Assembly: GCA_043720065.1 (NCBI GenBank)
Contig: JAYSTF010000113.1
Span: 675 to 64,674 of the forward strand
Source of the DNA: Pseudobdellovibrionaceae bacterium
Lineage (GTDB): Bacteria > Bdellovibrionota > Bdellovibrionia > Bdellovibrionales > UBA1609
Direction of reading: 5' to 3'
DNA: 64,000 nucleotides
Shown here: positions 2,028 through 54,600 of the stretch, piece after piece
How the letters are laid out: every line of letters begins with the position of its first letter
Position numbering within the stretch: position 1 is the first letter of the stretch
The notes under the pieces: generated by a model
Told to the model about the DNA's origin: nothing
Seen by the model: the letters and a program-made list of their open reading frames with translations, nothing else
The model's database searches: none
Made by a program: the position numbers and the translations under genes

Positions 2028-2762
2028 TTACTGAACGTAGTCGACAGTCACATCGAACTTAATGTCCGAGTGTTCGCAATCGAATTCGTTGTTATCGCCA
2101 ATCGAGATGAATTGGAATTCGTGTTGAGCGTGGGTGGCTTCTGATGCCATAGCCGCATACATAACTTCTTTTGGGAATGACATCGAGATCTGACCTGGGA
2201 CTTCCGTGGCGGGCCATGAGCAATTTGAGTGATGCTCTTTACCATCAGTTCCGATAACAGTTGTGCAAAATACGCCTTCCCGGGCTTTGTTTCCACCCCA
2301 GTCGTACCCGGCGATGGGTGACCACATATATTGAAGCAGACCATTCGATCCAGGCAAGACATCGTCAAAGTTAAACGACGAAGCGAGTACCTTCCCGTTT
2401 AAGGTCATTAAGAAATGGTCGTCATATACATATTGTTGAGTCGGGAAAGAAAAGCTCATGTTGCAGATAGTTGCGCCGGCAGGAATATCAATAGGAGCGG
2501 TTTGCTCAATTCGTGCGGTGAAAAAATCCTCGCGGATGGCTAAATTCCCGTTTTGACCCCATTCGCAGGTTTTATCGGGCTTAGGGAAATGAACAGCCAC
2601 GTTTTTAACTTGGCGGGGCCTGGTTTCGCACGCCTCTTTCACCTCGCTCGGGGTTTTTAGCGCCGATTGGTTGGCAAAAGCGACATGTTGTTGGCAGTTT
2701 TGGAATGCGCCAAAAATGAGAAATCCACTACCAATGATGAGTCCAAACATCCGAGTTTTCAC
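2028..2762 (-). CDS. Hypothetical lipoprotein (244 aa, Cys-containing)
   Basis: ORF track. GTG start 8 nt after AAGGAG. N-terminus MKTRMFGLIIGSGFLIFGAFQNC looks like a lipoprotein signal with a lipobox-like FQNC. No family recognised. Confidence 0.75.
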   Translation of the reverse strand: MKTRMFGLIIGSGFLIFGAFQNCQQHVAFANQSALKTPSEVKEACETRPRQVKNVAVHFPKPDKTCEWGQNGNLAIREDFFTARIEQTAPIDIPAGATICNMSFSFPTQQYVYDDHFLMTLNGKVLASSFNFDDVLPGSNGLLQYMWSPIAGYDWGGNKAREGVFCTTVIGTDGKEHHSNCSWPATEVPGQISMSFPKEVMYAAMASEATHAQHEFQFISIGDNNEFDCEHSDIKFDVTVDYVQ

Positions 2763-3091: not shown

Positions 3092-6000
3092 ATGCAGCGG
3101 AACTCTATTTCCGATCGTAAGCAATCTAAAGCGAAAGGCCGCGTCAATGGTGCAAAGCAGCCCCAGCCGGTAGAGAAAAGAGCGGTGCACGCATCTCCCA
3201 CTCCCACCTCAGGGTACATGACTGATCCGAGTAATCATCAGGACGGAAATGAAATAACTAAATCCGCTGATCCCGCACTTCGCCAACAATTGAGAAGCTT
3301 GCTGGGAACCGTAAAGGCCGTTCGTAGCGGAGATTTCTCTGTGCGAATGCCACTCGCTGAGGAAGGCATCGTTTCCGAAATCGGCGAGGTTTTAAATGAC
3401 ATCATCGAACTCAACGAGAACATGGCGAACGAGTTTTTGCGCGTTCGAAACACCGTCGGTCTTGAAGGCCGAATGAACGAACGGGTAATGATGGGCTCGG
3501 TAAAGGGCGCATGGTCGGCCGGCGTTGAATCCGTGAATCTACTTATCGGGGATCTTGTGCAGCCAACCACAGAGGTTGCGCGAGTTATTACGGCGGTCGC
3601 AAAAGGTGACGTGTCCCAGAAGATGTCGCTCGAGATGGACGGCCGACCGGTGAAGGGGGAATTCCTCCGCATCGGTACGACGGTGAACGCGATGGTGGAT
3701 CAGCTGAACTCATTCGCCTCAGAGGTAACGCGGGTTGCGAAGGAAGTGGGAACCGAAGGAAAGCTTGGCGGTCAGGCACATGTAAAGGGCGTGTCTGGTG
3801 TGTGGAAAGATCTAACGGATAATGTGAACGGTCTAGCCGGCAACTTAACGGATCAGGTTCGTAACATCGCAAAGGTGACGACCGCGGTTGCGCGAGGAGA
3901 CTTATCGCAGAAAATTACGGTTGATGCGCGCGGCGAGATCTTGGAATTGAAGAATACGATCAACACGATGGTGGATCAGCTGTCTTCCTTCGCTTCCGAG
4001 GTAACACGGGTTGCGAAGGACGTAGGCACCGAAGGAAAACTCGGCGGTCAGGCGAACGTTAAAGGTGTGTCTGGTACTTGGAAAGATCTAACAGACAACG
4101 TGAATGGTCTCGCGAACAACCTTACAGCTCAGGTTCGAAACATCGCGAAGGTAACGACCGCGGTTGCGAACGGAGATTTATCACAGAAAATTACAGTGGA
4201 TGTTCGTGGTGAGGTTCTTGAACTTAAGAACACGATCAATACAATGGTGGATCAGCTTAGATCATTCGCAGCGGAAGTTACACGGGTTGCGAAGGAAGTG
4301 GGAACGGAAGGCCGACTCGGTGGACAAGCGGATGTTAAAGGTGTGTCTGGTACTTGGAAAGATCTAACTGACAACGTGAATGGTCTTGCAAACAACCTAA
4401 CAGCGCAGGTTCGAAACATCGCCAAAGTTACGATCGCGGTTGCGAACGGAGACTTGTCGCAAAAGATTTCAGTGGATGCGCGCGGCGAGATCCTGGAACT
4501 AAAAGATACGATCAATACCATGGTGGATACACTTCGCTCATTCGCAGCGGAAGTAACGCGGGTTGCGAAGGAAGTGGGAACGGAAGGCCGACTTGGTGGA
4601 CAGGCGGACGTAAAAGGTGTGTCTGGTACTTGGAAAGATTTAACAGACAATGTGAATGCGATGGCGTCGAACCTAACGGTTCAGCTTCGTGACGTGTCAA
4701 AGGTGTCATCGGCGATCGCGAATGGCGATTTAACTCAGAAGATTACAGTAGATGTTCGCGGAGAAATTCTCCAGATCAAAGATGTTATTAATAAGATGGT
4801 GGATCAGCTTTCTTCATTCGCGGCGGAAGTAACCCGGGTGGCGAAGGAAGTGGGAACTGAAGGAAAGCTTGGCGGTCAGGCGGATGTGAAGGGAGTGTCG
4901 GGAGTTTGGAAAGACTTAACTGACAACGTGAACGGTCTAGCTGGAAACCTTACGGATCAGGTTCGAAATATTGCTAAAGTGACAACGGCGGTTGCGAAAG
5001 GTGACTTGTCACAAAAGATCACGGTCGATGCGAAGGGTGAAATTTTTGAGCTTAAGAACACGATCAATACAATGGTAGATCAGCTCAACTCGTTTACTGC
5101 GGAAGTAACACGGGTTGCGAAGGAAGTGGGAACCGAAGGAAAGCTTGGCGGTCAGGCGGATGTAAAAGGTGTGTCGGGAGTTTGGAAAGACTTAACTGAC
5201 AACGTGAATGGTCTAGCCGGTAACCTTACGGATCAGGTTCGAAACATTGCTAAGGTGACAACGGCAGTTGCAAAAGGTGACTTGTCACAGAAAATTACGG
5301 TCGATGCCCGAGGAGAAATCTTCGAATTGAAAAACACGATCAACGTCATGGTGGATCAGCTGAACTCATTCGCAGCGGAAGTTACGCGAGTTGCGAAGGA
5401 AGTGGGAACAGAAGGAAAGCTTGGCGGTCAGGCGGATGTAAAAGGTGTGTCGGGAGTTTGGAAAGACTTAACTGACAACGTGAACGGTCTAGCCGGTAAC
5501 TTAACTGATCAGGTTCGAAATATTGCTAAAGTGACAACGGCGGTTGCGACAGGTGACTTGTCACAAAAGATCACGGTCGATGCGAAGGGTGAAATCCTTG
5601 AGTTAAAGAACACAATCAATACGATGGTGGATCAGCTGAACTCATTCGCAGCGGAAGTAACGCGGGTTGCGAAGGAAGTGGGAACGGAAGGAAAGCTCGG
5701 AGGGCAGGCGGAAGTTCGCGGTGTCTCTGGCACGTGGAAAGATCTCACTGATAACGTGAACTTCATGGCGTCAAATTTGACGAAGCAGGTTCGTGGTATC
5801 GTTAAGGTAGTGACCGCAGTTGCGAATGGCGACTTAACTCAAAAATTCGTCATCGAAGCAAAAGGTGAGGTCGCAGCTCTAGCTGAAACGATCAACTCGA
5901 TGACCGATACGCTTCGAACCTTCGCCGATCAGGTGACTACGGTTGCTCGCGAAGTGGGAATCGAAGGAAAACTTGGCGGTCAGGCGAAGGTTCCTGGCGC

Positions 6001-8326
6001 CTCTGGTACTTGGAAAGATTTAACTGATAACGTGAACATCATGGCCTCAAACTTGACGAAGCAAGTGCGAGGTATCGTTAAAGTTGTGACCGCGGTTGCA
6101 GACGGCGATTTAACTCAGAAATTCGTTATCGAAGCTAAAGGTGAGGTTGCGGCCCTCGCTGAAACGATCAACTCGATGACCGATACACTTCGAACATTTG
6201 CGGATCAGGTAACATCAGTTGCCCGCGAAGTGGGAATCGAAGGAAAACTAGGCGGTCAGGCAAAGGTGCCGGGCGCTGCAGGAACTTGGAAAGATTTGAC
6301 CAACAACGTGAACCAGCTTGCAGGTAACTTGACCTCTCAGGTTCGAGCGATCGCGGAAGTTTCTACTGCGGTGACGAAGGGTGATTTGACCCGATCTATT
6401 ACAGTGGAAGCGCAAGGTGAGGTCGCGGCCCTTTCTGAAAACATCAACCAGATGATCGGAAATTTAAAAGACACGACCTCGAAAAACCAAGAGCAAGATT
6501 GGCTAAAAACCAACCTCGCGAAATTCTCGAGCATGATGCAGGGGCAAAGAAGTATCACTAGCGCAGCTCAGTTGATTATGTCAGAGCTAACCCCACTCGT
6601 TGACGCTCGTCAGGGCGCCTTCTACATGGCGGAGCTTGATACAACCCCAGAGACGACCTTAATTCTTACTGCCAGCTACGCTTTCACGGGTCGCCGAAGT
6701 GTACTTAACAAAATTCATCTTAAAGAGGGTCTCGTCGGTCAGTGCGCCTACGAGAAGAAGCCCATCCTTATTACTAATCCCGATGAGAGTTACGTAAAAG
6801 TTTCCTCGTCACTTCTTGAAATTACGCCGCGAAACATAATAGTGCTTCCGGTATTGTTCGAAGGTGAATTGAAAGCGGTCATTGAACTCGCATCGCTTAA
6901 GCCTTTCACTCAGAACTACATTTCGTTCCTTGATCAGTTGATGGATTCACTCGGTGTGATGTTGAATATGATTTCATCAAGTATGAGAACGGAAGAACTC
7001 TTGATGGAGCTGAAACGGTCTAACGCGGAGTTGGAAGCTCAGGCGAAAGAGCTCGAGGACAAAGCAAAGCTTCTCGAGGTCAAGAACCAAGAGGTGGAGC
7101 TTGCGAGCCGATCTTTGGAGGAAAAAGCCGAACAGCTTTCTCTTATCTCTAAGTACAAGTCGGAATTTCTTGCGAACATGTCGCACGAATTACGAACTCC
7201 ACTTAACAGCTTGTTGATCCTCTCTAAAACGTTGGCGGACAACAAAGAGAAGAACTTAACTAGTGACCAAGTGAAATACGCGAAGACGGTTCACTCGGCC
7301 GGTAATGATCTGCTCTCGCTAATCAACGAAATCTTGGATCTTTCTAAAGTGGAAGCCGGAAAAATGCCGGTCAACCCGAAGAATGTGGAGACTCCGGACA
7401 TCGTTGGCTATCTCGAGCAAACGTTCCGCCCTGTTGCGGAACACAAGGGGCTTGAGTTCGTGATCGAGACGGGTAAACAAATTCCAATGGTAATGTTCAC
7501 CGACGAGAGCCGATTGCAACAGATCCTCAAGAACCTTTTGTCGAACGCCTTCAAGTTCACAGAAAAAGGGCATGTTAAACTTGAGATCAATGCCGTTGAA
7601 GCTATTGACGGTGCAGGAAAGAATATCGTGTTCTCCGTTACGGACACGGGAATCGGTATTCCAGCAGAGAAGCAAAAGCTTATCTTCGAAGCCTTCCAAC
7701 AGGCCGACGGAACCACGAACCGGAAATACGGTGGAACCGGTCTCGGTCTTACAATCTCGAGAGAGATTGCAAGGCTCCTCGGCGGTATTATCGAGGTGGA
7801 ATCCGAGCCAGACATGGGAAGTACGTTCCGCTTAATCCTTCCAGAGCGCTATAGCGGTGCCGATGGCAATTACACCCTGTTACAACAAGAAGTTCGCGCC
7901 ATTCGGCCAATGTCATTCGAGAACATGGATCTCACCGGCCATAAGATTTTGATCGTCGACGACGACACAAGAAACATCTTTGCTCTTAACGCCATTCTCA
8001 AAGCGCGCGGCATGAACGTGTTGCAGGCTGAGAATGGACGTCAAGGTGTGGACCTTCTAATTCAAAATCCAGATGTTGAAATCATCTTGATGGATACCAT
8101 GATGCCAGAAATGGATGGACTCGAGGCCACAAGGCTTATCCGCGAAATGCCGATGCACAAACACTTACCGATCGTTTCACTTACGGCGAGCGCCATGAAA
8201 GGCGATCGTGAAAAGTGCTTCGAGGCAGGTGTGTCCGACTACATTACAAAACCAGTTGATGAAGACACATTGCTTGCAACAATTTATGGTTGGTTGATGG
8301 TGAAGCCGGATGCTCTTGAAAACTAA
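3092..8326 (+). CDS. Soluble hybrid sensor histidine kinase: poly-HAMP array - GAF - HisKA - HATPase - receiver
   Basis: ORF track (1744 aa). No TM segment seen. Residues ~60-1125 are concatenated HAMP-like units in 92-aa repeats ([92 protein letters not shown]). A GAF-like segment follows (QGAFYMAEL...[18 protein letters not shown]), then a coiled coil. H-box [10 protein letters not shown] (His codon 7184-7186). ATPase boxes [23 protein letters not shown]-terminal receiver ILIVDDD...[12 protein letters not shown]...ITKP. Confidence 0.9.
3722..6481 (+). repeat. Ten tandem 276-bp (92-codon) coding repeats, each a double-HAMP unit
   Basis: The GGQA(H/N/D/E/K)V motif recurs 10 times at 92-aa spacing. 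Adjacent units are near-identical in protein, and the DNA differences I checked are mostly synonymous (e.g. 4837.. vs 5113..: acc/aca, gtg/gtt, act/acc, gtg/gta, aag/aaa, gga/ggt). Confidence 0.9.
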
Positions 8327-10415
8327 TGAACGAGTCGACATCCTCGTTGTCGATGATCGCGAGGATGGGCTTTTAGCGATAGAGGCTCTTCTTGGCGAAA
8401 ACCCGGTCTACAATTTGGTTATGGCACATTCAGGGATAGAAGCGTTAAGGCTCCTGCCGAAGCATGACTTCAGCATGATCCTTCTTGATGTGCAGATGCC
8501 CGATCTTGATGGCTTTCAAACGGCGGAGCTCGTTCGCAGGCAAGCTCGTTACAATGGGATAGCGATTATTTTTATAACTGCGATCAATAAAGACGATCGT
8601 TACGTTTACCGGGGCTATGAATCTGGCGCCGTCGATTATTTGTTTAAACCATTCGACCCTGTGATTTTAAAATCAAAAGTCGCGGTTTTTGCTCAGCTTC
8701 ATCTGAAAGAGCGGCAAATTCGCGAGCAGGCTCTCCGTTTGACTGAGCAAGAATCAATCGGGCATCGCGCCCGTGTTCAAGCATTAGAAATTGAGGGATT
8801 AAATCGTTACCGCAGTCTTGCCGATGCCATCCCCCATATGGTTTGGCGAACCACAAATGTAGGCGAGCTAGATTACTGCAACGATCTTTGGAGCAGTTAC
8901 ACCGGTACCTCGCAACTTGATTGCCAAGGTTTGAACTGGCGCCAATCGGTCCACCCGGAAGACCTGCAAATTTTGTTGGATCAATGGACGGTTGCGATGG
9001 CGCAAGGAGAGACCTTTGAAGTCGAGGCCCGAATTCGCCGGCATGATGGAATTTATCGCTGGCATTGGGTTAAGGGTGTCAGTGAAAAAGGCCCTGAGGG
9101 TCATGTCAAAGCATGGCTTGGCACCTGTACGGACATTCACGACCGAAAACTTTTTGAACGTAAACTCATTGAAGCTCAGCGCCAGGCAGAGGAAGCTAAC
9201 CAGGCGAAAACCCAGTTTTTAGCAAATGTTAGCCATGAAATTCGAACCCCGCTCAATGCGATTATTGGTTTTACTGAATTGATGCTCGATCCGGATTGTA
9301 TGGTTGAAGAGCGACAGAATAATCTCTCCATCGTCCGCCGTAACGGGCAGCAGCTTTTAAAAATCATCAATGAAGTTTTGGATATATCTAAAGTAGAAGC
9401 TGGCGGTTTGGAGATCGAGCGCATCGAAACAAACCTCGCAAGTCTTATCGCTGGCATTAAATCGTCGATGAGCGTGATTGCAATTAAAAAAGGAATCAAA
9501 TTAGAGTTTCGCGTGAGAGACAAAATTCCAGAGGAAGTTTGGACGGATTCCACTCGACTACATCAAATTCTGTTAAATATTGTCGGCAATGCCTTGAAGT
9601 TTACCAGCCAGGGCTCAGTGCAAATCACGGCTGAATATTTTGGTGAAATTGACAGACGATCCATCCTTCGCTTCACGGTGTGTGACACCGGAGTGGGCGT
9701 GGATGCGACGGCCGCCCAAAAGATCTTTACGCCCTTTACCCAGGCCGACAGTTCCACAACGCGGATCTTCGGCGGCACGGGCTTAGGGTTAGCTTTAGCC
9801 AGAAAGCTGGCGCGCGCATTGGGTGGGGATATCTGGCTAGATAAGAGCGAACCTGACAAAGGAAGTAGCTTTGTCGTGGAAATTGAGGCGGCGCTTGTGG
9901 ATGAAACGGCTTGGATTAACAGATTCTCTGACGTTTCCGATGACTCCGAAGCCGGCAATGAAACCCATAGTAAAGGCGAACTTGTTGGCGCCAAAATCCT
10001 TTTGGTCGAAGACGCAAAAGATAATCAAATTTTAATTAGTTGTTTCCTACAAAACTCAGGAGCCCACATCGACATCGCGAACAACGGCAAAGAGGGAGTC
10101 GAGATGGCTCTAGCAAACGATTACTCTTTGGTTCTAATGGACATTCAGATGCCGTTTTTGGATGGCTACGAAGCGACTTCACGACTCAGACAAGCGGGCT
10201 TCAAGGCGCCAATCATCGCACTAACTGCTCACGCGTTAAACGAAGAGCGGGATAAGTGTCTGCGAGTTGGTTGCAACGCGCATTTAACGAAGCCAATCAC
10301 GCGGCAGCATTTAATCGATAGCGTCGCCCGCCATCTTGAGCCACGCGGAAGCATCAAAAAATTAGAAGCGCTTCCCAAGCGACCGGCCCGAGATCTAATG
10401 ACCGGGCAAAACTAG
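8310..10415 (+). CDS. Hybrid histidine kinase: receiver - PAS - HisKA - HATPase - receiver
   Basis: ORF track (701 aa). The start overlaps the upstream stop by 17 nt. N-terminal receiver ILVVDDRED...[15 protein letters not shown]-like [14 protein letters not shown]...[11 protein letters not shown]-box [21 protein letters not shown]-terminal receiver [10 protein letters not shown]...[12 protein letters not shown]...LTKP. Confidence 0.9.
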
Positions 10416-10513: not shown

Positions 10514-10565
10514 TATTTGTAAGATATGATCTTGGAGAGTGGGACGACCTTCGTTTGGAGACCAA

Positions 10566-11564
10566 ATGAAATCAATGGGAAGCCGTCTCAGATTCGGCGC
10601 TAGCATCCTTGGGACTCTAATTCTGATTGTAGCTTTCAACAACTGTTCGGTCGGCGGTTCGCTCGAACCCAACTCCAATATGGTTGCAGGCATTACGCCA
10701 TCGCCCTCAACATCTGAGGTGCTTTCGAAGATCTCGACTTATGATTCCAATGGCGCGCTTCTTCGTTATCAAGTGCACGAGCGGACAGCCAGCGGCTTCG
10801 CCATAACCCTTTTCGATCAAGACGATCGAGTGACCATGAAGAACGAGTCCTTTAATGCGAACGGCTTGATTACAAGCCAAACTACGACCATCTATAGAAC
10901 AGACGGCAGCACCACTATCACGAAATACTTAAATACCTATAACAATGGCAAGATTGTCTCGCAGATGCAGGAAACCGACGGCGTAATAGTCAGTATGACG
11001 ACGTACAATTGGGATAAGCAGCAAATCAAAATCGAAACATTCTCTGCCGGGAGCGGCTTACTAGACTCAACCCGAACTACGACTTACAAATATTTTTTGC
11101 CAAACGATAGCCGTCCCGTGGTTGGCGGTATTATGAGTTTTTCTGTGGCCGATAACGCTGGCACCGTCACTCAAAGCGGCTCGTCCCAAATCGCAGAAAG
11201 CGGTGGGGGTAACTACACGTCTGTTGAAACGGTGAGTATTCCCAGTACTTCGCAGGTTAAGAAACTCACTACGACCGGGATCGTGACCAATATGAAATGT
11301 CTAAACAATACAGCTCCGGTCATAAATATTCTTTCGCACAAAACGGAGAATTTCGATAACGGAAGCAGCATCCCCTCTAGCACAAGTGGATATACCATTG
11401 AATACAACAGCTCGAATTCTCAGGTTTCTCACGTGCTCACTCAAGCAAGGGGTACAAAAACCTGCTTAACAAGGTATGATCCATCGGGTTGCATAGCCGC
11501 CGAACGAACGTGCTCTGAGAATGGGATAACGGAACGCATGGTGTATCAGTATGCAGCTCAATAA
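10566..11564 (+). CDS. Hypothetical lipoprotein with degenerate YD-like repeats
   Basis: ORF track frame. I prefer the internal ATG at 10566: MKSMGSRLRFGASILGTLILIVAFNNC (lipobox-like AFNNC). Recurrent YDxxG / NG-type motifs (TYDSNGALLRY, FNANGLITSQ, YNNGKIVSQ, YDPSGCIAAE). Confidence 0.7.
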   Translation: MKSMGSRLRFGASILGTLILIVAFNNCSVGGSLEPNSNMVAGITPSPSTSEVLSKISTYDSNGALLRYQVHERTASGFAITLFDQDDRVTMKNESFNANGLITSQTTTIYRTDGSTTITKYLNTYNNGKIVSQMQETDGVIVSMTTYNWDKQQIKIETFSAGSGLLDSTRTTTYKYFLPNDSRPVVGGIMSFSVADNAGTVTQSGSSQIAESGGGNYTSVETVSIPSTSQVKKLTTTGIVTNMKCLNNTAPVINILSHKTENFDNGSSIPSSTSGYTIEYNSSNSQVSHVLTQARGTKTCLTRYDPSGCIAAERTCSENGITERMVYQYAAQ

Positions 11565-11762: not shown

Positions 11763-14006
11763 TTACGGAGAAACTGTCGGGTTAATTGGCCGTGGGTAAA
11801 TCGCGACGCCTTTTGCGGGGGCGTTGTTCACGGGCAAAGCCAAGCGGCTAAGAGGTGAGCGAGGCGCATGCACGCGAGTGAACTTTCCTGGAATTTTAGT
11901 CGAAGTTAAAATTACTCGGTAATAAGCCAAACGTGTCGACTCAATCGTGTATTCAAGTTCTGTACCGGGTCCGGCAAGTTCTAAACCAAGTTGGAATGTG
12001 AATGGATTTTCCAACATTGCTCGGCCGAATTGGCTGTAGGACTTCGCGAAGGCTTGTTCATCTTTAGCGCGGCGGGCTTCGCGCATTTGTTCAAGCGCTA
12101 TGTTCATGTCCTCAGTTGCCATTGTAGTTCGGCTCACGATCGAGCTTGAGCAATACTCGAACGCACTCTCATGGCTTTGGTTGCGGCAGAGGTCATACTT
12201 GTCTTCAATGGTACTAAAATAGTTGCGCGCAAGATTTGTCGTTCGCTCAGAGAGTGTTTTAACAGTCATCGCATTGAGTTCCCCTAATAGGCGGTTCGTC
12301 TGCTCTTCTCCGAAAGTCATAGTAAGCGCTAGGCGGCCATAGCCGAGGTCCGACCCACGTGGAACGGCGACTTTGGTTTCATCCCGCAGTCCTGTTCGGC
12401 GAACCAACTCGGCTTGCGCACCCTCAAGATCACCGGGGCTTGCGTTGTCGTCTTCAGCGACGAATGTGTACTGACCGAAATAGCCCTCAGTTAAAGCGTT
12501 ATTGTTAGCATCCACTAAGTTGAATGAGGTGCCGTAAAACGTCTCAGTTTTGCTTACGTGCAGATTAAATAAGCGCGCTTTATTTGAACGCATGTAAATA
12601 CCGTAGTGAACATTAGCTTTGGTTCCACTAGCTAACATATTTGTCTGGCTGAATTCATAAGCGTCGCCCGAGGAATGAACGATGTTGGCGATAATAGGTA
12701 GGCCCAAAAAGAAGTAGTTTACGTAACCACGTTGGTTGCGCGTGAAAATGTCGAGCTTCTCAACGAACGCTCCAACGTCGGCTGCGGCTTGGGCAGCCGC
12801 CACGTTTCCATGTATCAAATCATGAAGCAGTTTCGCGCCTTCAGGTTTTGAAATATCGATCGCATAGGAAAATCCTGAAGCCTCTTCGTCATAGTCTGTG
12901 CGGCCGACAGAGATAAGCGTCGCACTTACAGCGTTAGTAACTCGTGTGACTTCAATGTCTTGAACTCGGACCGCAACAACAGTGTCAGACGCCTTTTCCA
13001 CATAAACTTGGAACACACCTTCAGCCACATAAGAGGAAGAAAATCCTACCCCTCCGTAGCCAAGAGCGCCGGAGAAGATTACGCCACCTTTGGTGGCGTA
13101 ATTTACGGCATCTCCCGTTTTCCACTTCGCCAAAATTTCTTCAGACGATGGCAATGCGCTTGATTGCGGCATTGCTTCCGCTTCCGCCAAAGTGTTCGCG
13201 TGACGAAGGAACCTAGCCTCTTTGCCTTTGATCGGAATAAGTCCAACGTTAGCCCATAATGATTTATGAACACCCGCCGCATTTTCATAATTAAAGAAAA
13301 CGCTCGCGCCGATTCCGACCTCTAGATTTGAGTAAAAGATGGTCTGGTAACCGTTTTTGCTGTCGCCCTTAATGAGCCTTTCGTTATTCTCGTCGTGCGG
13401 AGTGAGGTTCACAATCTGGAACGACCGATCGAAATCTAAGTAAAAGGCCGGACGCAGCCGAGCTTTAAGCTCGCGCGTCTGCGCTGCAACCGGAGTCGGC
13501 TCTTCAGCCGGAGGTTGTACGTTTCCACCGTTGTCATCTGAAGGCGGAGTTGTCGGAGGTGTCTCTGGAGGAGTTACGGGGGGAGTGACCGGGGGAGTAT
13601 TGTCATCCGATGGAGGAGTCGCAGGCGGAGTAGTTGGAGGCGCAGTCGGTGGAGTTACCGGCGGAGTAACTGGAGGAGTCACCGGTGGGGTGTTGTCATC
13701 CGACGGAGGTGTCACCGGTGGTGTTATGGGAGGCGTAACAGGAGGAGTAACTGGTGGCGTTGTCGGAGGTTTGTTGTCATCTGACGGTGGTGTCACGGGA
13801 GGAGTCACAGGTGGAGTTGTCGGCGGTGTTACTGGCGGTTTGCCCGGAGGCACATTGTCGTCGCTGCCGCCGGGAGGATTTGCGTTTCCATTCCCGCCCG
13901 TGTTGCCTTGGTTTCCCACCGAAGTTTTGAATTTAAGTTGAGAATGTGCTGGGGTTACCAGCAAAAGTGACATCGCGAATAAACTGACCTTAATAAACTG
14001 GATCAT
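11763..14006 (-). CDS. Secreted protein with an N-terminal Pro/Thr-rich repeat region, function unknown
   Basis: ORF track (747 aa). Signal-like MIQFIKVSLFAMSLLLVTPAHSQ. Residues ~44-172 are (PPxT)n blocks punctuated four times by SDDN. The remaining ~570 aa belong to no recognised family. Confidence 0.8.
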   Translation of the reverse strand: MIQFIKVSLFAMSLLLVTPAHSQLKFKTSVGNQGNTGGNGNANPPGGSDDNVPPGKPPVTPPTTPPVTPPVTPPSDDNKPPTTPPVTPPVTPPITPPVTPPSDDNTPPVTPPVTPPVTPPTAPPTTPPATPPSDDNTPPVTPPVTPPETPPTTPPSDDNGGNVQPPAEEPTPVAAQTRELKARLRPAFYLDFDRSFQIVNLTPHDENNERLIKGDSKNGYQTIFYSNLEVGIGASVFFNYENAAGVHKSLWANVGLIPIKGKEARFLRHANTLAEAEAMPQSSALPSSEEILAKWKTGDAVNYATKGGVIFSGALGYGGVGFSSSYVAEGVFQVYVEKASDTVVAVRVQDIEVTRVTNAVSATLISVGRTDYDEEASGFSYAIDISKPEGAKLLHDLIHGNVAAAQAAADVGAFVEKLDIFTRNQRGYVNYFFLGLPIIANIVHSSGDAYEFSQTNMLASGTKANVHYGIYMRSNKARLFNLHVSKTETFYGTSFNLVDANNNALTEGYFGQYTFVAEDDNASPGDLEGAQAELVRRTGLRDETKVAVPRGSDLGYGRLALTMTFGEEQTNRLLGELNAMTVKTLSERTTNLARNYFSTIEDKYDLCRNQSHESAFEYCSSSIVSRTTMATEDMNIALEQMREARRAKDEQAFAKSYSQFGRAMLENPFTFQLGLELAGPGTELEYTIESTRLAYYRVILTSTKIPGKFTRVHAPRSPLSRLALPVNNAPAKGVAIYPRPINPTVSP
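13491..13877 (-). repeat. Coding low-complexity repeat (PPVTPP...SDDN x4)
   Basis: Read from the translation. The mirrored GGVTGGV ORF on the plus strand (13531..13941) is its antisense artefact. Confidence 0.85.
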
Positions 14007-21590: not shown

Positions 21591-22571
21591 ATGTCTGCTT
21601 TGCTGGAAAATAAGAAACGAAAGATCTTAGTCGTCGACGACGATCCTGCAAGTCTGCGTATTTCGTCGAAGGCTTTGGAGTTTGAGGGCTATCAGGTTGA
21701 AACCGCGAACTCAGGTCATGAAGCGGTAACGAAAATGAATGCCTGGCGCCCGCACTTGGTTCTGCTCGACATCAGCATGCCAGCTCTCGATGGGTTAGAG
21801 ACACTTAAAATTTTGCGTGCCCGTGATGAGTACGTTTCCGTGCTTTTCGTAAGCGGAAGATCCGCATCTGAAGATGTAATTCGCGGCCTGGATTCAGGGG
21901 CCGATGATTACATCCGCAAACCCTTCGATACGCTCGAGCTGCTTGCCCGAGTTCGTAGCCAACTACGCATCAAAGATTTAAATGACAGTCTAAAAAAAGC
22001 TAACGACAAACTTAAGGAATTGATCGATATCGATGACCTGACCGGCCTCTTTAACATGCGATCGCTTTATAAGCGTTTGGATTTTGAACTCGATCGGGCC
22101 CGACGCTACAAACGCTCCGTTTGCGTTGTTATGATGGACATGGATCATTTTAAGCAGGTCAACGATAAGCATGATCACTTGTTTGGCAGTTTTGTGCTTT
22201 CCCAAGTGGGAAAAATGATTAAAGACAATATTCGCAAAGTAGATTTCGCCGCCCGCTATGGCGGGGATGAATATCTCGTGGTGCTTACGGAAATCGATCA
22301 AAAAGGAACTGACACATTCACTGAAAGGTTACGCGCTCGCATTGAGGGCTTCACATTTATTTCCGACAATCATTCCATCCGATTAACGGCCAGCCTCGGT
22401 TATTGTTTAGCTTCACCGGCCACGCAAAACATCGACGCCAGGGCGTTAGTGCGATTGGCAGACAAAGCGCTTTACCGGGCAAAACAAGGTGGTCGAAATC
22501 GCGTGGAAGCTTGGACTGACGTTGAAGAACGCAATCCTATTCCAGAGGAATCATTGCGCCGTGGGAATTGA
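21591..22571 (+). CDS. Response-regulator receiver + GGDEF nucleotide cyclase with a Hypr-type Ser at the base-specificity position
   Basis: ORF track (326 aa). Receiver KILVVDDD...LLDISMPALDG...IRKPF. Cyclase DMDHFKQVNDKHDHLFGSFVL, with Ser200 (codon 22188-22190) where canonical enzymes have GD. I-site RKVD lies 5 aa before the active-site motif GGDEY. Confidence 0.9.
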   Translation: MSALLENKKRKILVVDDDPASLRISSKALEFEGYQVETANSGHEAVTKMNAWRPHLVLLDISMPALDGLETLKILRARDEYVSVLFVSGRSASEDVIRGLDSGADDYIRKPFDTLELLARVRSQLRIKDLNDSLKKANDKLKELIDIDDLTGLFNMRSLYKRLDFELDRARRYKRSVCVVMMDMDHFKQVNDKHDHLFGSFVLSQVGKMIKDNIRKVDFAARYGGDEYLVVLTEIDQKGTDTFTERLRARIEGFTFISDNHSIRLTASLGYCLASPATQNIDARALVRLADKALYRAKQGGRNRVEAWTDVEERNPIPEESLRRGN

Positions 22572-29800: not shown

Positions 29801-30739
29801 GTGAGCGCCACTGTGGAAAACGTAATTATTTTGGGTTCTGGTCCTGCGGGTCTTACGGCAGCTATCTACGCGGCTCGCGCCAATCTTAAGCCTCTAATGA
29901 TCGAGGGCGACGAGGCCGGCGGTCAGCTGATGACAACAACCGAAGTGGAAAACTATCCGGGTTTCCCCAAGGGAATTCAAGGTCCAGAATTAATGATGAT
30001 CACCCGTGAACAAGCGGAGCGGTTTGGGACGCGGTTCATCACTCGTAACGCGACAAAAGTAGATTTCTCCTCACGACCTTTTCGCATTTGGGTGGGGGAG
30101 AAAGAGTACCAAGCCAAGACCGTGATTATTTCAACCGGCGCCAGTGCAAAGTACTTGGGCTTGCCCAATGAACGTAAATATTTAGGCCGCGGAGTTTCTG
30201 CCTGCGCCACTTGCGATGGGGCTTTCTTTAAAAATCTTCAGGTTGCGGTCATCGGCGGTGGGGATACTGCGATGGAGGAAGCGAATTTTCTAACTCGCTT
30301 TGCTAGTAAAGTTTTTGTCGTTCATCGAAAAGATCATTTCCGCGCTTCGAAAATCATGGCGGATCGAGTGATGAAGAATCCTAAGATCGAAGTCTTGTGG
30401 AATTCAGAACTCGTCGACGTGACTGGCGATGAAGTTGTTAAATCGATTAAGGTGTTGAACAATCAAACAAATGAAATGCAAGACATGACGATGGATGGTG
30501 TGTTTATCGCCATCGGGCACAAGCCTAATACGGATTTGTTTAAGGGCCAGCTGCGCATGAATGAAGTAGGTTATCTTTTAACTGAGGGTAAGACCGCATA
30601 CACTTCAGTGCCAGGCATCTTTGCTTCCGGTGATGTGCAAGATCCAGTGTACCGGCAAGCGATCACGGCCGCTGGTACTGGTTGCATGGCTGCGATCGAT
30701 GCCGAACGCTGGCTTGAAGCCAACGAGGCCCATGGCTAA
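29801..30739 (+). CDS. trxB: Thioredoxin-disulfide reductase
   Basis: ORF track frame. GTG 29801 is preferred (AAGGAAGG 10 nt upstream; the longer ORF would overlap the ferredoxin gene). GSGPAGLTAAIYAARA, redox CATCDG, GGGDTAMEEA. Confidence 0.9.
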   Translation: MSATVENVIILGSGPAGLTAAIYAARANLKPLMIEGDEAGGQLMTTTEVENYPGFPKGIQGPELMMITREQAERFGTRFITRNATKVDFSSRPFRIWVGEKEYQAKTVIISTGASAKYLGLPNERKYLGRGVSACATCDGAFFKNLQVAVIGGGDTAMEEANFLTRFASKVFVVHRKDHFRASKIMADRVMKNPKIEVLWNSELVDVTGDEVVKSIKVLNNQTNEMQDMTMDGVFIAIGHKPNTDLFKGQLRMNEVGYLLTEGKTAYTSVPGIFASGDVQDPVYRQAITAAGTGCMAAIDAERWLEANEAHG

Positions 30740-31238
30740 AACACCCCGCCGCATGCATACAAAAGATCTTGTCGATAAAATCGAAAAGATCACTAAAGAG
30801 CGCATGGCAAGAGAGAAGGTCGTTAACATTCGCGACCTCCGTCAAATGCGGCCGCCGGAGCAGCCCCTTACTATATTGGTTATTGAGGATGACGAAACTA
30901 TTCGCGCGGCGCTGAAGCGCATCTTCGAAGGCGAAGGTTATAAGGTAATCGCGGCCGCGGACGGCACTCAGCTAAGCGCTGTTTTAGATGATAACCCGAT
31001 CGACCTAATTATATTAGATGTCGGCTTACCCTGGATTAACGGGTTTGAGCTTGCGACGTTAATGAAGTCCCACGCCGACCTAAAAAACATTCCATTAATT
31101 TTCGTTTCTGGGCGCACCTCAGAGGCAGACATAAAGCAGGGGTTTGAAGTTGGCGCGGACGACTTCATAAAAAAACCCTTCGACATAGAAAAGATCAAAA
31201 AGACCGTCCACACCCTCATGCAACTCGCGCATTCCTAG
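30732..31238 (+). CDS. Single-domain (CheY-like) response regulator with a ~40-aa basic N-terminal extension
   Basis: ATG 30732 overlaps the trxB stop (ATGGCTAA). ILVIEDDETIR...IILDVGLPWINGFE...IKKPF. Confidence 0.8.
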   Translation: MAKTPRRMHTKDLVDKIEKITKERMAREKVVNIRDLRQMRPPEQPLTILVIEDDETIRAALKRIFEGEGYKVIAAADGTQLSAVLDDNPIDLIILDVGLPWINGFELATLMKSHADLKNIPLIFVSGRTSEADIKQGFEVGADDFIKKPFDIEKIKKTVHTLMQLAHS

Positions 31239-51647: not shown

Positions 51648-54600
51648 CTATGGTTTTTTGACCACGACCAACGACGCATTGGAGCTTGTAACGGCACCTA
51701 CGTTCGCTTCCGATTGGCTTGTGACCGAGATGATGTCGTTAGCGTTTAAGCGGCGTAACAAGAAGACAATGCTCTCCGAGGCTTCAGTGTGACCAGCAGT
51801 GTTTCGTATATATCCAGTCTTGCCTTCGGCACCGCTAATCGCCACTCCGTTCACTAGTATTTTCTTGATGGCGTTCACCCTAGCGGCCGCCGCTGATTCG
51901 GCAGAGTTAAACATCACCAAGTAATCACCGGCGCTTAAGACCGTAACTTGGTGAGAATTTGATACAGTTGAGTGAGTAAATGTAGAAGTATCTCTGACTG
52001 GTTCAGTGGTTAAAGTAATCGGACTTGCGGTAGCCGCATTGAAATCCGCGCCACTAACAAGGGAAGTTCCATAACCATAGAAAACACCGGACGTGGATCC
52101 CAGTCGCTCAACAAATAGCGAAGCGGTACGTCCTGCCGGGACAGCTATTGTTCCAGCCGCGCCCTCAAGCTGGGCGGTAATCGTGAGAATTGCATTTGCT
52201 GACGCGGCTCTAACCATTCCTGACCAATGAACGGAGGATTGCGTGTGAGTGCCAGTGGCGGAAATGTAACCCTGCTTGGCCTCGCCGCCAATTACAGGCG
52301 ATCCATTCAGATTCAAAACCACTTTGACGTTTCCGTTTGTTACGGCACCGCTTAGCGGCAGATTTACATGTACCAAGTAATCTCCTACGGCATCGAGAAT
52401 AATGTTTTGAGTATTAGTAGCATTACTGTGTGTGAAGCCAGGATCCATGATTGAGTTGGTCCACGCCAACCCATAAGCGGTGGTTTGGTTAAAATTCGTT
52501 GGCGCAGTCACATCGACAGTTTGTGTCGCTGTCGCCCTAAAGATGGTGCGTGCGGGCGCAATATACTCGACATAAAGTGAGGCTGTGCCCGTGATCGTCA
52601 CCGTCGCGACAGCGCCACCTTTAAGCACCGTAACGTCAACGATGTCGTTCGCGGCCAATCCAGGGAGCAAGATCGCCATATTGATTGAAGACTCGGTGTG
52701 ACCGCCTGTGTTCGCCATATAGAACGGTTGCGCGCGGCTGCCTGTGTTGACGACGCCGTTCACTCGAACTTCAGTTATAATATTGGTAGCTGCAGTCGCC
52801 GCCGTACCAGGCAAAGTTAATGCAACTAAATAATCCCCAGCGACTCTTACAGCCAGCTGGTGGGAAAGTGCTGTAGTTGAATGGGTATAATAGTCATAAT
52901 CGAAATCCGATGAGCTCCACTGCATAGAGTAAGCCGTTGCTTGATTAAGATTCGTTGGAGTTGTCGGAGCCGTAGTTTGTGTTCCCTTGAGAGAGGCAAC
53001 GCCAACACCAATCGTGTAAGCTTCATAAACAGCGGATGTGGACGAGCAAGCTGAGGCATTGCCGGCCGCATCTGTGGCTTTGGCGTAGTATGTGACGTTT
53101 GTATTCCACGGTCCTGTCATCGCGACGTTAAAAGTTCCGCCGCCGCTGGTTGTTCCGGATGTGACCGCAGTCGTACAAATGGAGTTAGAAAACACTGAAA
53201 TTGTACTTGCCGCTTCGGCGGTTCCATCAAGTGTGACGGCTTGCTTGCTGGAGCGAAGAGCAGGTGTGGTTCCGGAAATCACTGGAATCGCCGGCGCAAC
53301 CGAATCTTCGATGTAGTTCAGTGGCGATAGTGAGCAAGCCGAAATATTGCCAGAAGCGTCCGTCGCATTGGCATAGACGCCGGTAGTGGTGTTATCAGTC
53401 ACTGATATTGCGATGCTAATAGCTCCTAGCGCACTCGCGGTTCCAGAGCTGAGAGTGATCGTGCAGGCGGCATTGCTAAACAGGGAAATGGCGGCATTAT
53501 TTTCAGCCGTACCAAGAACCGCGGGAGCATTGTTGTTTGCAGGACTGTTTGGCGAAGTACCGGTTAGAGTCGGCGCACTGGGGGCCGTAGAGTCTTCAAC
53601 ATATGTCACTGGTGTGGCACTACAAGCGGAAACGTTACCAGCACCGTCCATCGCAGTAGCGTATACGGATGTTGAAGTGTCATTTAAAACTGAAATTGCG
53701 ATCGTGAAAGCCCCAGCTCCATTCGCCGTACCTGTGGCGAGCGAAGCCGTGCACGCTGCGTTTGAGTAAAGAGCCACAGGGGCATTGTTTTCAGTCGTTC
53801 CATTTATAACCGGAGAGTTATTGTTTGCCGGGCTGTTTGGAGTCGAAAGACCAAACGTCGGAGCGGCTGGTCCCAAAGAGTCCTCGACATACCCCACGGG
53901 AGTCAAACTGCAGGCGGATGTGTTTCCGGCTGGATCTGAGGCCAAGCCAAAAATCGAAGTGGTCGTATTATCTGCAACGCTTGCCGCCACTGAGAAATTG
54001 CCCAATCCATTTGAAGCGCCACTTCCAATAACGGTTGTGCACGTGGCATCTGAAAAAAGCGTAACTGTGTTATTGGCTTCAGCTGTACCGTTTACCGTCG
54101 GAGAATTGTTGTTCGCTGGTCCCGTTGGAGTTGTAGAAACCAGTGCAGGAGCCGCAGGAGGGGTAGAATCTTCGACATAAGGAACGGTAGTTGTGCTGCA
54201 TCCGGAAGCATTTCCAGCCACGTCAGTGGCGATGCCATAAACATTAGTAGTTGTGTTGTTGGCGACGGATATCGTCACCGTGAAGCTGCCTATGCCGCTA
54301 GCGACGCCGCTGGCTAAAGCAGTGGAGCAAGTATTATTTGAGAACAAGCTCACAGTAGCAATGGCCTCCGCAGTGCCTGTGATCACGGGAGCGTTGTTAT
54401 TCGCCGGTCCCGTCGGGGTTGCCGAACTCACTATGGGCGCCGCTGGGCTCGCGGAGTCTTCAATAAAGTTTAACGCGGTCGATGTGCATGCACCGAGATT
54501 GCCCGAGACATCTGTGGCATTTCCATAAATAGTTGTTGTCGTGTTATCGGCTGCTGAAATCGTAACTGTAAAGTTTCCGCTGCCGTTCGCAGCGCCAGAA

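Follow-up and report, generated by a model that had tools for sequence, protein, structure and literature searches.

A gene for a soluble poly-HAMP hybrid kinase

We analyzed a stretch of 64,000 nucleotides (nt) from a metagenome bin of Pseudobdellovibrionaceae (Bdellovibrionota; contig JAYSTF010000113.1; the whole stretch is hereafter called the window), focusing on an open reading frame (ORF) at positions 3092-8326 that encodes a hybrid histidine kinase with a long array of HAMP domains, and on the kinase gene that overlaps its 3' end. Both genes, and all of the features described for them below, lie on the forward strand. The poly-HAMP ORF, identified by ORF calling, comprises 1744 amino acids (aa) plus the stop codon; it begins with ATG, the G-rich stretch GGGGGGGATCG is located just 5' of this codon, and the stop-free stretch upstream of the ATG covers only 16 codons. 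In the protein, a basic N-terminal tail is followed by ~1064 residues of concatenated HAMP domains, a GAF domain, HisKA, HATPase_c and one receiver domain (REC). A hydropathy scan, conducted without a dedicated transmembrane (TM) predictor, yielded a top 19-residue Kyte-Doolittle mean of 1.65, and because this maximum is located on a charged beta-strand segment within the GAF domain, no TM helix was called. Pfam found no sensor domain ahead of the array (aa 1-62) and no match to a methyl-accepting chemotaxis protein signalling domain in the protein, which has a kinase core in its place.

These results confirm that the ORF at 3092-8326 is real and that it encodes a soluble poly-HAMP hybrid kinase. 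An earlier reading of the same DNA (hereafter, the preliminary description) had proposed a soluble hybrid kinase with GAF-HisKA-HATPase-REC after a HAMP rod of ~1060 residues; the Pfam domains and the hydropathy profile both agree with this proposal, and the array measured here spans aa ~63-1126, or ~1064 residues.

The array contains 23 HAMP domains

A 276-nt period was detected by Tandem Repeats Finder over positions 3690-6455 (top score 2150). In the protein, the motif WKDLT appears ten times between aa 238 and aa 1066 at exact 92-residue intervals, far above chance, and the ten corresponding units begin at aa 201, 293 and so on to aa 1029, with zero insertions or deletions. The profile of these units shows 43 invariant columns out of 92, among them the junction glycines and the tryptophan at position 38 of the unit. 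The composition of the coding strand across the array (window positions 3500-6000) also differs from that of the flanks, with a GC skew of 0.2-0.29 and an AT skew of ~0.16 as compared with ~0.03-0.09, a compositional signature of repeated G- and A-rich codons.

We aligned the array with the crystallized segments of AskA, a poly-HAMP kinase of Myxococcus xanthus. The alignment to the 6-HAMP segment (PDB 9trk) was gap-free over aa 66-344 (E 1.3e-115), as was that to the 4-HAMP segment (PDB 9trj) over aa 66-252, and the HAMP borders were mapped from the 9trk alignment. HAMP1 (~aa 63-108; 3278-3415) aligns without gaps to AskA HAMP1 in 9trk and is of the canonical D1 type; its V77 is the equivalent of AskA V41, and when scanned alone it matched Pfam HAMP weakly (15.2 bits). 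HAMP2 (~aa 109-154; 3416-3553), which is colinear with 9trk, is of the non-canonical C type and carries Trp141, the equivalent of AskA W105, which has been named as the interface tryptophan (PMC13446029); no Pfam match was obtained when this segment was scanned alone. HAMP3 (~aa 155-206; 3554-3709) is a canonical D2 variant with Pro158 in helix 1 (QPTTE motif) and a 5-residue connector insertion; the Trp-to-Trp spacing across this domain is 97, as compared with 92 elsewhere, and the segment scored 25.6 bits with Pfam HAMP and 27.5 bits with HAMP_2. A proline in the input helix and a connector insertion (a beta-hairpin) define HAMP3 of AskA-like arrays (PMC13446029); the check made here concerns Pro158 and the insertion in the sequence. 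Beyond HAMP3, ten di-HAMP modules of 92 aa (276 nt) each, corresponding to HAMP4-HAMP23 (3710-6469), extend the C-D2 pairs to ~aa 1126 and comprise a core (U1-U7) and a specialised terminal block (U8-U10). The interface tryptophan is present in every C-type HAMP (W141 and the ten WKDLT motifs). In total, the array contains 23 HAMPs, namely D1 followed by 11 pairs of C and D2, arranged head to tail without linkers.

Pfam lists 11 HAMP and 11 HAMP_2 stretches in the protein. When pieces were scanned singly, the second (D2) half of U1 and HAMP3 matched both Pfam models, whereas the first (C) half of U1 matched neither HAMP nor HAMP_2; since canonical pieces match both models and non-canonical pieces match neither, both sets of 11 most likely fall on a single set of 11 canonical HAMPs (one per unit plus HAMP3). 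The C halves are counted as HAMPs because of their gap-free alignment to the AskA crystal structures. Pfam thus appears to see every second HAMP, and automated domain counts for poly-HAMP kinases are expected to be about half the true number; moreover, the HAMP and HAMP_2 models would count the same domains twice. The preliminary description had estimated ~22 HAMPs, which falls one short of the 23 counted here (D1 plus 11 C-D2 pairs), and had correctly recognized ten 92-aa units after deviating N-terminal ones, which correspond to ten modules at exact spacing after three specialised HAMPs. Its proposal that profile scans should detect HAMP in the repeats held for the canonical halves (11 matches) but failed for the non-canonical segments tested, which gave no match.

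Output path and kinase core

The output helix of the last HAMP leads through a helical linker (6470-6547), delimited from an AlphaFold2 helix and from conservation of its QDWLKTN motif, into the GAF domain; in the form QDWL.TN, this motif is invariant in 27 homologues. The GAF domain (aa 1153-1291; 6548-6964) was identified by Pfam GAF_2 (E 1.6e-14) and GAF (4.7e-10) and was modelled with a predicted local distance difference test score (pLDDT) of ~85-92. It is followed by a coiled-coil signalling helix into DHp/HisKA (6965-7360; HisKA aa 1356-1423, Pfam 1.1e-18), in which the H-box SHELRTP contains the phospho-acceptor His1365, by HATPase_c (aa 1470-1585; 7499-7846; Pfam 9.6e-31), in which the N box begins at aa 1481, the G1 box at aa 1518 and the G2 box at aa 1547, and by the single receiver (aa 1619-1731; 7946-8284; Pfam Response_reg 6.8e-27), with the acceptor Asp1668 and the conserved DDD, T and K residues. 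GAF, HisKA, HATPase_c and Response_reg all score above the Pfam curated cut-offs, and the catalytic and phospho-site residues are intact in both kinases of the pair.

We further modelled aa 1029-1430 as a monomer with AlphaFold2, using a 27-sequence alignment (mean pLDDT 77.6, with values of ~50-60 for the HAMPs and of 85-92 for GAF and DHp). The model contains three continuous helices, one from HAMP22 helix 2 into HAMP23 helix 1 (aa 1066-1096) and another from the HAMP23 output helix into GAF (aa 1110-1149). The third, of ~110 residues (aa 1274-1383), includes His1365 and connects GAF, by way of the coiled coil, with DHp helix 1. If each HAMP layer takes up ~15-16 helical residues, the rod formed by the 23 HAMPs would measure ~50 nm.

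A second hybrid kinase directly downstream

The 3' end of the poly-HAMP gene overlaps by 17 nt with a gene for a REC-PAS-HisKA-HATPase-REC hybrid kinase of 701 aa (8310-10415; domains by Pfam), which is predicted to be soluble as well. A full-length homologue of this partner (35-60% identity) is located directly downstream of the poly-HAMP gene in 46 of the 72 related loci with enough sequence, and a shorter REC-containing version is found at this position in several more. Even at a distant locus (L082), a REC-PAS-HisKA-HATPase gene directly follows the poly-HAMP kinase gene; its product is 28% identical overall, and the N-terminal receiver is visibly its best-conserved part. No other flanking gene was conserved with the kinase pair in the related loci. 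Around the pair, sigma-70-type promoters and intrinsic terminators were no more numerous than in shuffled sequence, so that the 17-nt overlap is what the operon structure rests on.

The protein belongs to a described family of poly-HAMP kinases

Judged by its exact repeat spacing, the gap-free alignment to AskA, the interface tryptophans, the junction glycines, and Pro158 with the adjacent insertion, the window protein is a member of the published family of kinase-type poly-HAMP proteins (the AskA/AskB class, related to fungal group III kinases). Like the window kinase, AskA and AskB of M. xanthus (MXAN_0712 and MXAN_6735; PMC13446029, PMC7643160) are soluble, begin with a D1 HAMP followed by 92-aa C-D2 modules, contain the HAMP3 proline and insertion, the interface tryptophan and the junction glycines, and carry GAF-DHp-CA-REC after the array. 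The arrays differ in length, with 21 HAMPs in AskA and 31 in AskB (PMC13446029) as compared with 23 in the window kinase. In addition, the window kinase contains a single receiver, whereas PMC7643160 refers to 'Rec3' of AskA. In M. xanthus, askC is located immediately downstream of askB; AskA, AskB and AskC interact, AskC binds ambruticin, and mutants are affected in development (PMC7643160). The basic N-terminal tail of the window kinase (~60 aa) is longer than those of AskA and AskB, and the lineages also differ: AskA and AskB are from Myxococcota and have functional data, whereas the window kinase, from Bdellovibrionota, is known from its sequence.

The fungal group III kinases (Nik1, Os-1, TcsC and Bos1), which are eukaryotic and feed the HOG (high-osmolarity glycerol) pathway via Ypd1/Ssk1, similarly are soluble and combine an N-terminal array of the same di-HAMP module with a kinase core and a receiver. 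Their arrays, which consist of ~5-6 repeats, are much shorter than the 23 HAMPs of the window kinase, and the likeness was drawn from their descriptions. The number of HAMPs in the fungal proteins has been given as 'frequently more than 5' (PMC7643160), and bacterial and fungal kinase-type arrays have been treated as one family (PMC13446029), which bears out the assignment of the 92-aa double-HAMP module to the fungal group III type in the preliminary description. With its closest relatives in Bdellovibrionota and its 23 HAMPs, the window kinase is a relative of the fungal group and not a member of it.

Chemoreceptor-type poly-HAMP arrays (PMC13446029) resemble the window array in being soluble and long, in alternating canonical and non-canonical HAMPs, and in their identical linker lengths and junction glycines; however, they are of independent origin, consist of A/B-type HAMPs, have Phe in place of the interface Trp and possess a methyl-accepting output. 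Alternating HAMP conformations are also found in Aer2, which, like FrzCD, is a soluble multi-HAMP receptor. Unlike the window kinase, Aer2 and FrzCD contain few, diverse HAMPs that are split by linkers or PAS domains, and have a chemoreceptor output.

Array length varies among relatives in the middle block

The 624 C-terminal residues, which lie outside the repeats, were searched against a set with one genome for each species; this gave 230 confirmed relatives, of which the best 80 were used for the analysis of loci (numbered with the prefix L). These 80 are almost all from Bdellovibrionota, the identities being 77-78% for bins of Pseudobdellovibrionaceae and Bdellovibrionales and 71-74% for complete genomes of Bdellovibrio; a lookup of the exact protein sequence in public assemblies gave no match. 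The 92-residue spacing was kept in all orthologous arrays checked (14/14). By contrast, the number of modules among complete orthologous ORFs ranged from 3 to 11 (9-25 HAMPs): 11 WKDLT modules (25 HAMPs, ~1840 aa) were counted in each of the nine complete Bdellovibrio genomes that we retrieved, the window gene and those of L001, L032 and L041 have 10, and the other orthologues have 3-8, including L025 with 5 modules on a 3.26-Mb contig. The unit that is missing relative to 11-module arrays maps to the homogeneous middle block, which contains three units here and four in L002 and L003. These comparisons show that HAMP1-3 and the three terminal di-HAMP modules are specific to their positions and conserved throughout the phylum, and that the middle modules can nearly replace one another and differ in number from orthologue to orthologue. 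Two contigs of one Bdellovibrio bin each hold a relative of the kinase (L057/L075 and L046/L074), and some genomes may accordingly carry two paralogues, in the manner of AskA and AskB in M. xanthus; no second poly-HAMP gene was found within the 64-kb window.

Beyond this phylum, the family is large. A total of 4778 poly-HAMP kinases have been counted in NR90 (PMC13446029), and a homologue search yielded at least 8000 candidates, each with an E-value below 1e-10. According to a motif count, at least 27 HAMPs are present in 115 of the 120 cluster representatives with the best scores, a list that was ranked by score and therefore favours long arrays. The homologues with long arrays are from Acidobacteriota, Planctomycetota, Verrucomicrobiota, Ignavibacteria and others; within the list of 120, the window protein stands at the short end, and its single receiver contrasts with the additional receiver-like regions of the long homologues. 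The earlier statement that bacterial arrays are rarely this long is contradicted by these counts, as well as by the lengths of AskA, AskB and the 25-HAMP orthologues in complete Bdellovibrio genomes.

The units are old and each is under purifying selection

We compared the ten units with each other at the protein and DNA levels. Over all pairs, the identities were 58-97% in protein and 59-91% in DNA; between adjacent units, they were 76-96% and 73-87%, respectively, with 29-48 synonymous versus 7.5-37 non-synonymous differences per pair. The synonymous distance (dS, Nei-Gojobori method) was ~1 or more for most pairs, the non-synonymous distance (dN) was 0.03-0.2, and dN/dS had a median of 0.13 (range 0.026-0.31). 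U5-U7, with dS values of 0.36-0.78, are younger or homogenised, and the longest exact DNA run common to two units is 74 nt. When each unit was compared with its positional orthologue in L001, dN/dS was 0.013-0.044. Moreover, the best match of each of U1-U4 and U8-U10 was the unit at the same position in L001-L003 (92-98% identity), and the three terminal modules could be recognised out to a Bacteriovoracia genome. U9 is a hybrid, in which the C half is like that of U10 and the D2 half is like that of U8, a pattern that points to duplication in a shifted register close to the output end, with U9 as the duplicate.

The high dS, the low dN/dS and the positional orthology of U1-U4 and U8-U10 support the idea that the duplications are old and that each unit is under purifying selection, rather than being a recent duplicate. 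This is what the preliminary description had argued, with the reservation that U5-U7 are younger or homogenised, and the dN/dS calculation between 276-bp units that it had suggested gave low values throughout. Two of the observations on which it had drawn need to be restricted: near-identity of neighbouring units in protein applies only to U5-U7, and the DNA differences between units are mostly, but not all, synonymous.

A proposed pair of kinases with a tunable HAMP rod

Taken together, these results make it probable, in our judgement, that the window protein is a soluble poly-HAMP hybrid kinase of the AskA/AskB class, presumably a homodimer, that works as a pair with the downstream kinase. 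On the model of the AskA structures, the dimer would form one continuous parallel four-helix rod along the whole array, in which neighbouring HAMPs would be conformationally coupled, canonical and non-canonical domains taking opposite helix-rotation states. The GAF-DHp-CA module might then be shifted in its on/off equilibrium by the state of the array. Input and output may be coupled at the specialised ends (HAMP1-3 and U8-U10) and this coupling tuned by the middle block, an arrangement that fits the fixed, specialised ends and the variable number of middle modules. The 17-nt overlap and the conserved adjacency suggest pairing with a co-transcribed REC-PAS-HisKA-HATPase-REC kinase, and the phosphoryl group could pass from His1365 to Asp1668 of the same protein and/or to a partner receiver, as has been proposed for AskB-AskC. 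By analogy, the stimulus might be a physico-chemical cue inside the cell, such as osmotic or solute stress, or a small molecule. The preliminary description had called both the sensed signal and its propagation along such a rod unknown; for propagation, the 4-HAMP and 6-HAMP crystal structures and a model of alternating helix rotation (PMC13446029) are available, as are the genetics of AskA, AskB and AskC.

Several points weigh against this interpretation. Neither an HPt domain nor a cognate output regulator turned up near the pair, so that the phosphoryl route is a guess. The likeness of the pair to askB-askC (AskC being MXAN_6734) is one of gene order. The geometry of the dimer and the rod is borrowed from the AskA homologue, our own model being a monomer with a pLDDT of 50-60 in its HAMP part, and the module number of 10 comes from a short-read metagenome assembly. 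Finally, a literature search on Bdellovibrio, HAMP and hybrid histidine kinases found only a database paper, and no experiment on the window protein or on any Bdellovibrionota orthologue.

Elsewhere in the window, two forward-strand genes lie downstream of the pair, one for a REC-GGDEF response regulator at a distance of ~11 kb (21591-22571) and one for a stand-alone receiver protein at ~20 kb (30621-31238). Both are possible phosphorelay partners, unlinked to the pair.

Instead of relaying or modulating a signal, the HAMP array could itself be the sensor, the stability of its bundle responding directly to osmolarity or water activity, temperature, hydrophobic compounds or chemical modification of HAMP residues, with no input role for GAF or the tail. 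The poly-HAMP region of fungal group III kinases is needed for osmosensing and the fungicide response, intrinsic ligand recognition or modification of HAMPs has been raised in PMC13446029, and every module of the window array is under strong constraint; moreover, poly-HAMP kinases as a family have no upstream sensor domain, and none precedes the array here. We nevertheless lean against this possibility, since modules vary from 3 to 11 among orthologues whose array ends are fixed, which fits a tunable connector better than a distributed sensor. Furthermore, the conserved GAF and the PAS-containing partner offer conventional ligand sites, and it was AskC, and not AskA or AskB, that bound ambruticin in M. 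xanthus (PMC7643160).

The number of modules in the assembly

We considered whether the array length is an assembly artefact, such that one near-identical middle unit was collapsed and the true gene has 11 modules (25 HAMPs). The nine complete Bdellovibrio genomes all have 11 modules as compared with 10 here, and the difference falls in the homogeneous middle block, in which L002 and L003 have one unit more. At the read level, the sequence was found only in Logan unitigs of four short-read sediment metagenomes, in which the array is broken into pieces of 56-867 nt. After correction for 31-mer multiplicity, the depth of the U5-U7 unitigs was 10-23x, some of them at 20-23x, as compared with 13-16x in the flanks. 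In addition, 30 of the 80 related loci (among L004-L078) have a poly-HAMP ORF that is cut off within the array by the 5' end of the contig, which identifies poly-HAMP arrays as common breakpoints of short-read assemblies. The ORF of L011 is located at the very start of a 2.7-Mb contig.

However, even the most similar units differ by 9% in DNA and no exact run shared by two units exceeds 74 nt, so that a seamless collapse is not favoured. The excess depth is ~1.4-1.6x instead of 2x, one unitig of the same block is at only 10x, and a variant unitig at ~7x points to a second strain, which explains the uneven depth. Other relatives (L001, L032 and L041) also have 10 modules, and length variation is evidently real on long contigs, as in the case of L025. 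We therefore regard a collapsed module as unlikely.

The basic N-terminal tail

The first 62 residues (3092-3277) form a basic low-complexity tail, recognised from its composition, in which Pfam detected no domain. It contains 10 K+R versus 6 D+E, and its first 35 aa contain 9 versus 2. Among 30 tails examined, 28 were net positive (median +5.5); their lengths were ~45-140 aa, and among Bdellovibrionota orthologues it is the charge of the tail that is conserved and not its sequence. By contrast, the acidobacterial and ignavibacterial homologues begin almost directly at HAMP1, nearly without a tail. One may speculate, with little confidence, that the Bdellovibrionota kinase gained a long, basic, disordered tail that tethers the distal end of the rod to the nucleoid or an anionic membrane surface, the array being a length-tunable mechanical link (9-25 HAMPs). 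If this were true, the mechanical link would report the state of the chromosome or the envelope to the kinase pair, perhaps in the predatory growth cycle. The tail recalls the positively charged N-terminal extension with which FrzCD binds DNA (PMC12077210, cited through PMC13446029); the likeness is a lead only, and if the window kinase binds DNA at all, the tail would be a more plausible site than the repeats.

It is very improbable that the repeats are DNA-binding modules (SpoIIID-like and RpiR-type helix-turn-helix segments) and the protein a DNA-bound regulator, as has been suggested for AskA and AskB: the whole-protein Pfam scores in the array exceed the thresholds for SpoIIID (53 bits) and HTH_6 (34 bits), the families reported for AskA and AskB, and AskB bound PmrpC DNA in vitro (PMC7643160), but no single SpoIIID or HTH_6 stretch is significant, the scores being sums of ten weak matches of ~30 residues, the best SpoIIID stretch (aa 234-263) overlies the Trp238 segment of a C-type HAMP, and the homologous positions in the AskA crystal structure are helices of the HAMP bundle (PMC13446029). 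SpoIIID and HTH_6, together with Laminin_II, IcmF-related_N, PilJ and other matches in the array, were rejected, since none has a stretch that is significant alone and all are summed weak repeats.

Other genes in the window and at related loci

The remaining neighbours of the pair look like housekeeping genes, namely those for leucyl-tRNA synthetase, arginine decarboxylase, a deoxyhypusine-synthase-like protein and prolyl oligopeptidase. Three ORFs, at 10539-11564 (forward strand, 341 aa), 11763-14006 (reverse strand, 747 aa) and 2028-2762 (reverse strand, 244 aa), have no Pfam or NCBIfam match, and no counterpart of them is located beside the kinase pair in the related loci. CheR/CheB (methyltransferase/methylesterase) genes are found a few genes away from the poly-HAMP kinases at an ignavibacterial locus (L081, 15417-17329) and at the distant locus L082 (15160-19161), in L082 as fusions with PAS and kinase domains; the window kinase has no such genes nearby. 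A second giant ORF (51648-56864, reverse strand, 1738 aa) contains nine Big_6 bacterial immunoglobulin-like repeats and Big_13 matches, and probably encodes a surface or adhesin-type protein.

Implications for the family and for Bdellovibrionota

The eye-catching repeat protein is thus an ordinary member of a large family, known from earlier descriptions and in part solved structurally; it is neither exceptional in length nor unexplored as a kind, and we do not consider it a discovery. Of modest interest is that, in Bdellovibrionota, a well-conserved orthologue paired with a REC-PAS hybrid kinase occurs in genetically tractable predators. With its fixed, specialised ends and a middle block that varies in copy number, the array also serves as a natural experiment on the tuning of signalling by array length, an idea that has been published.

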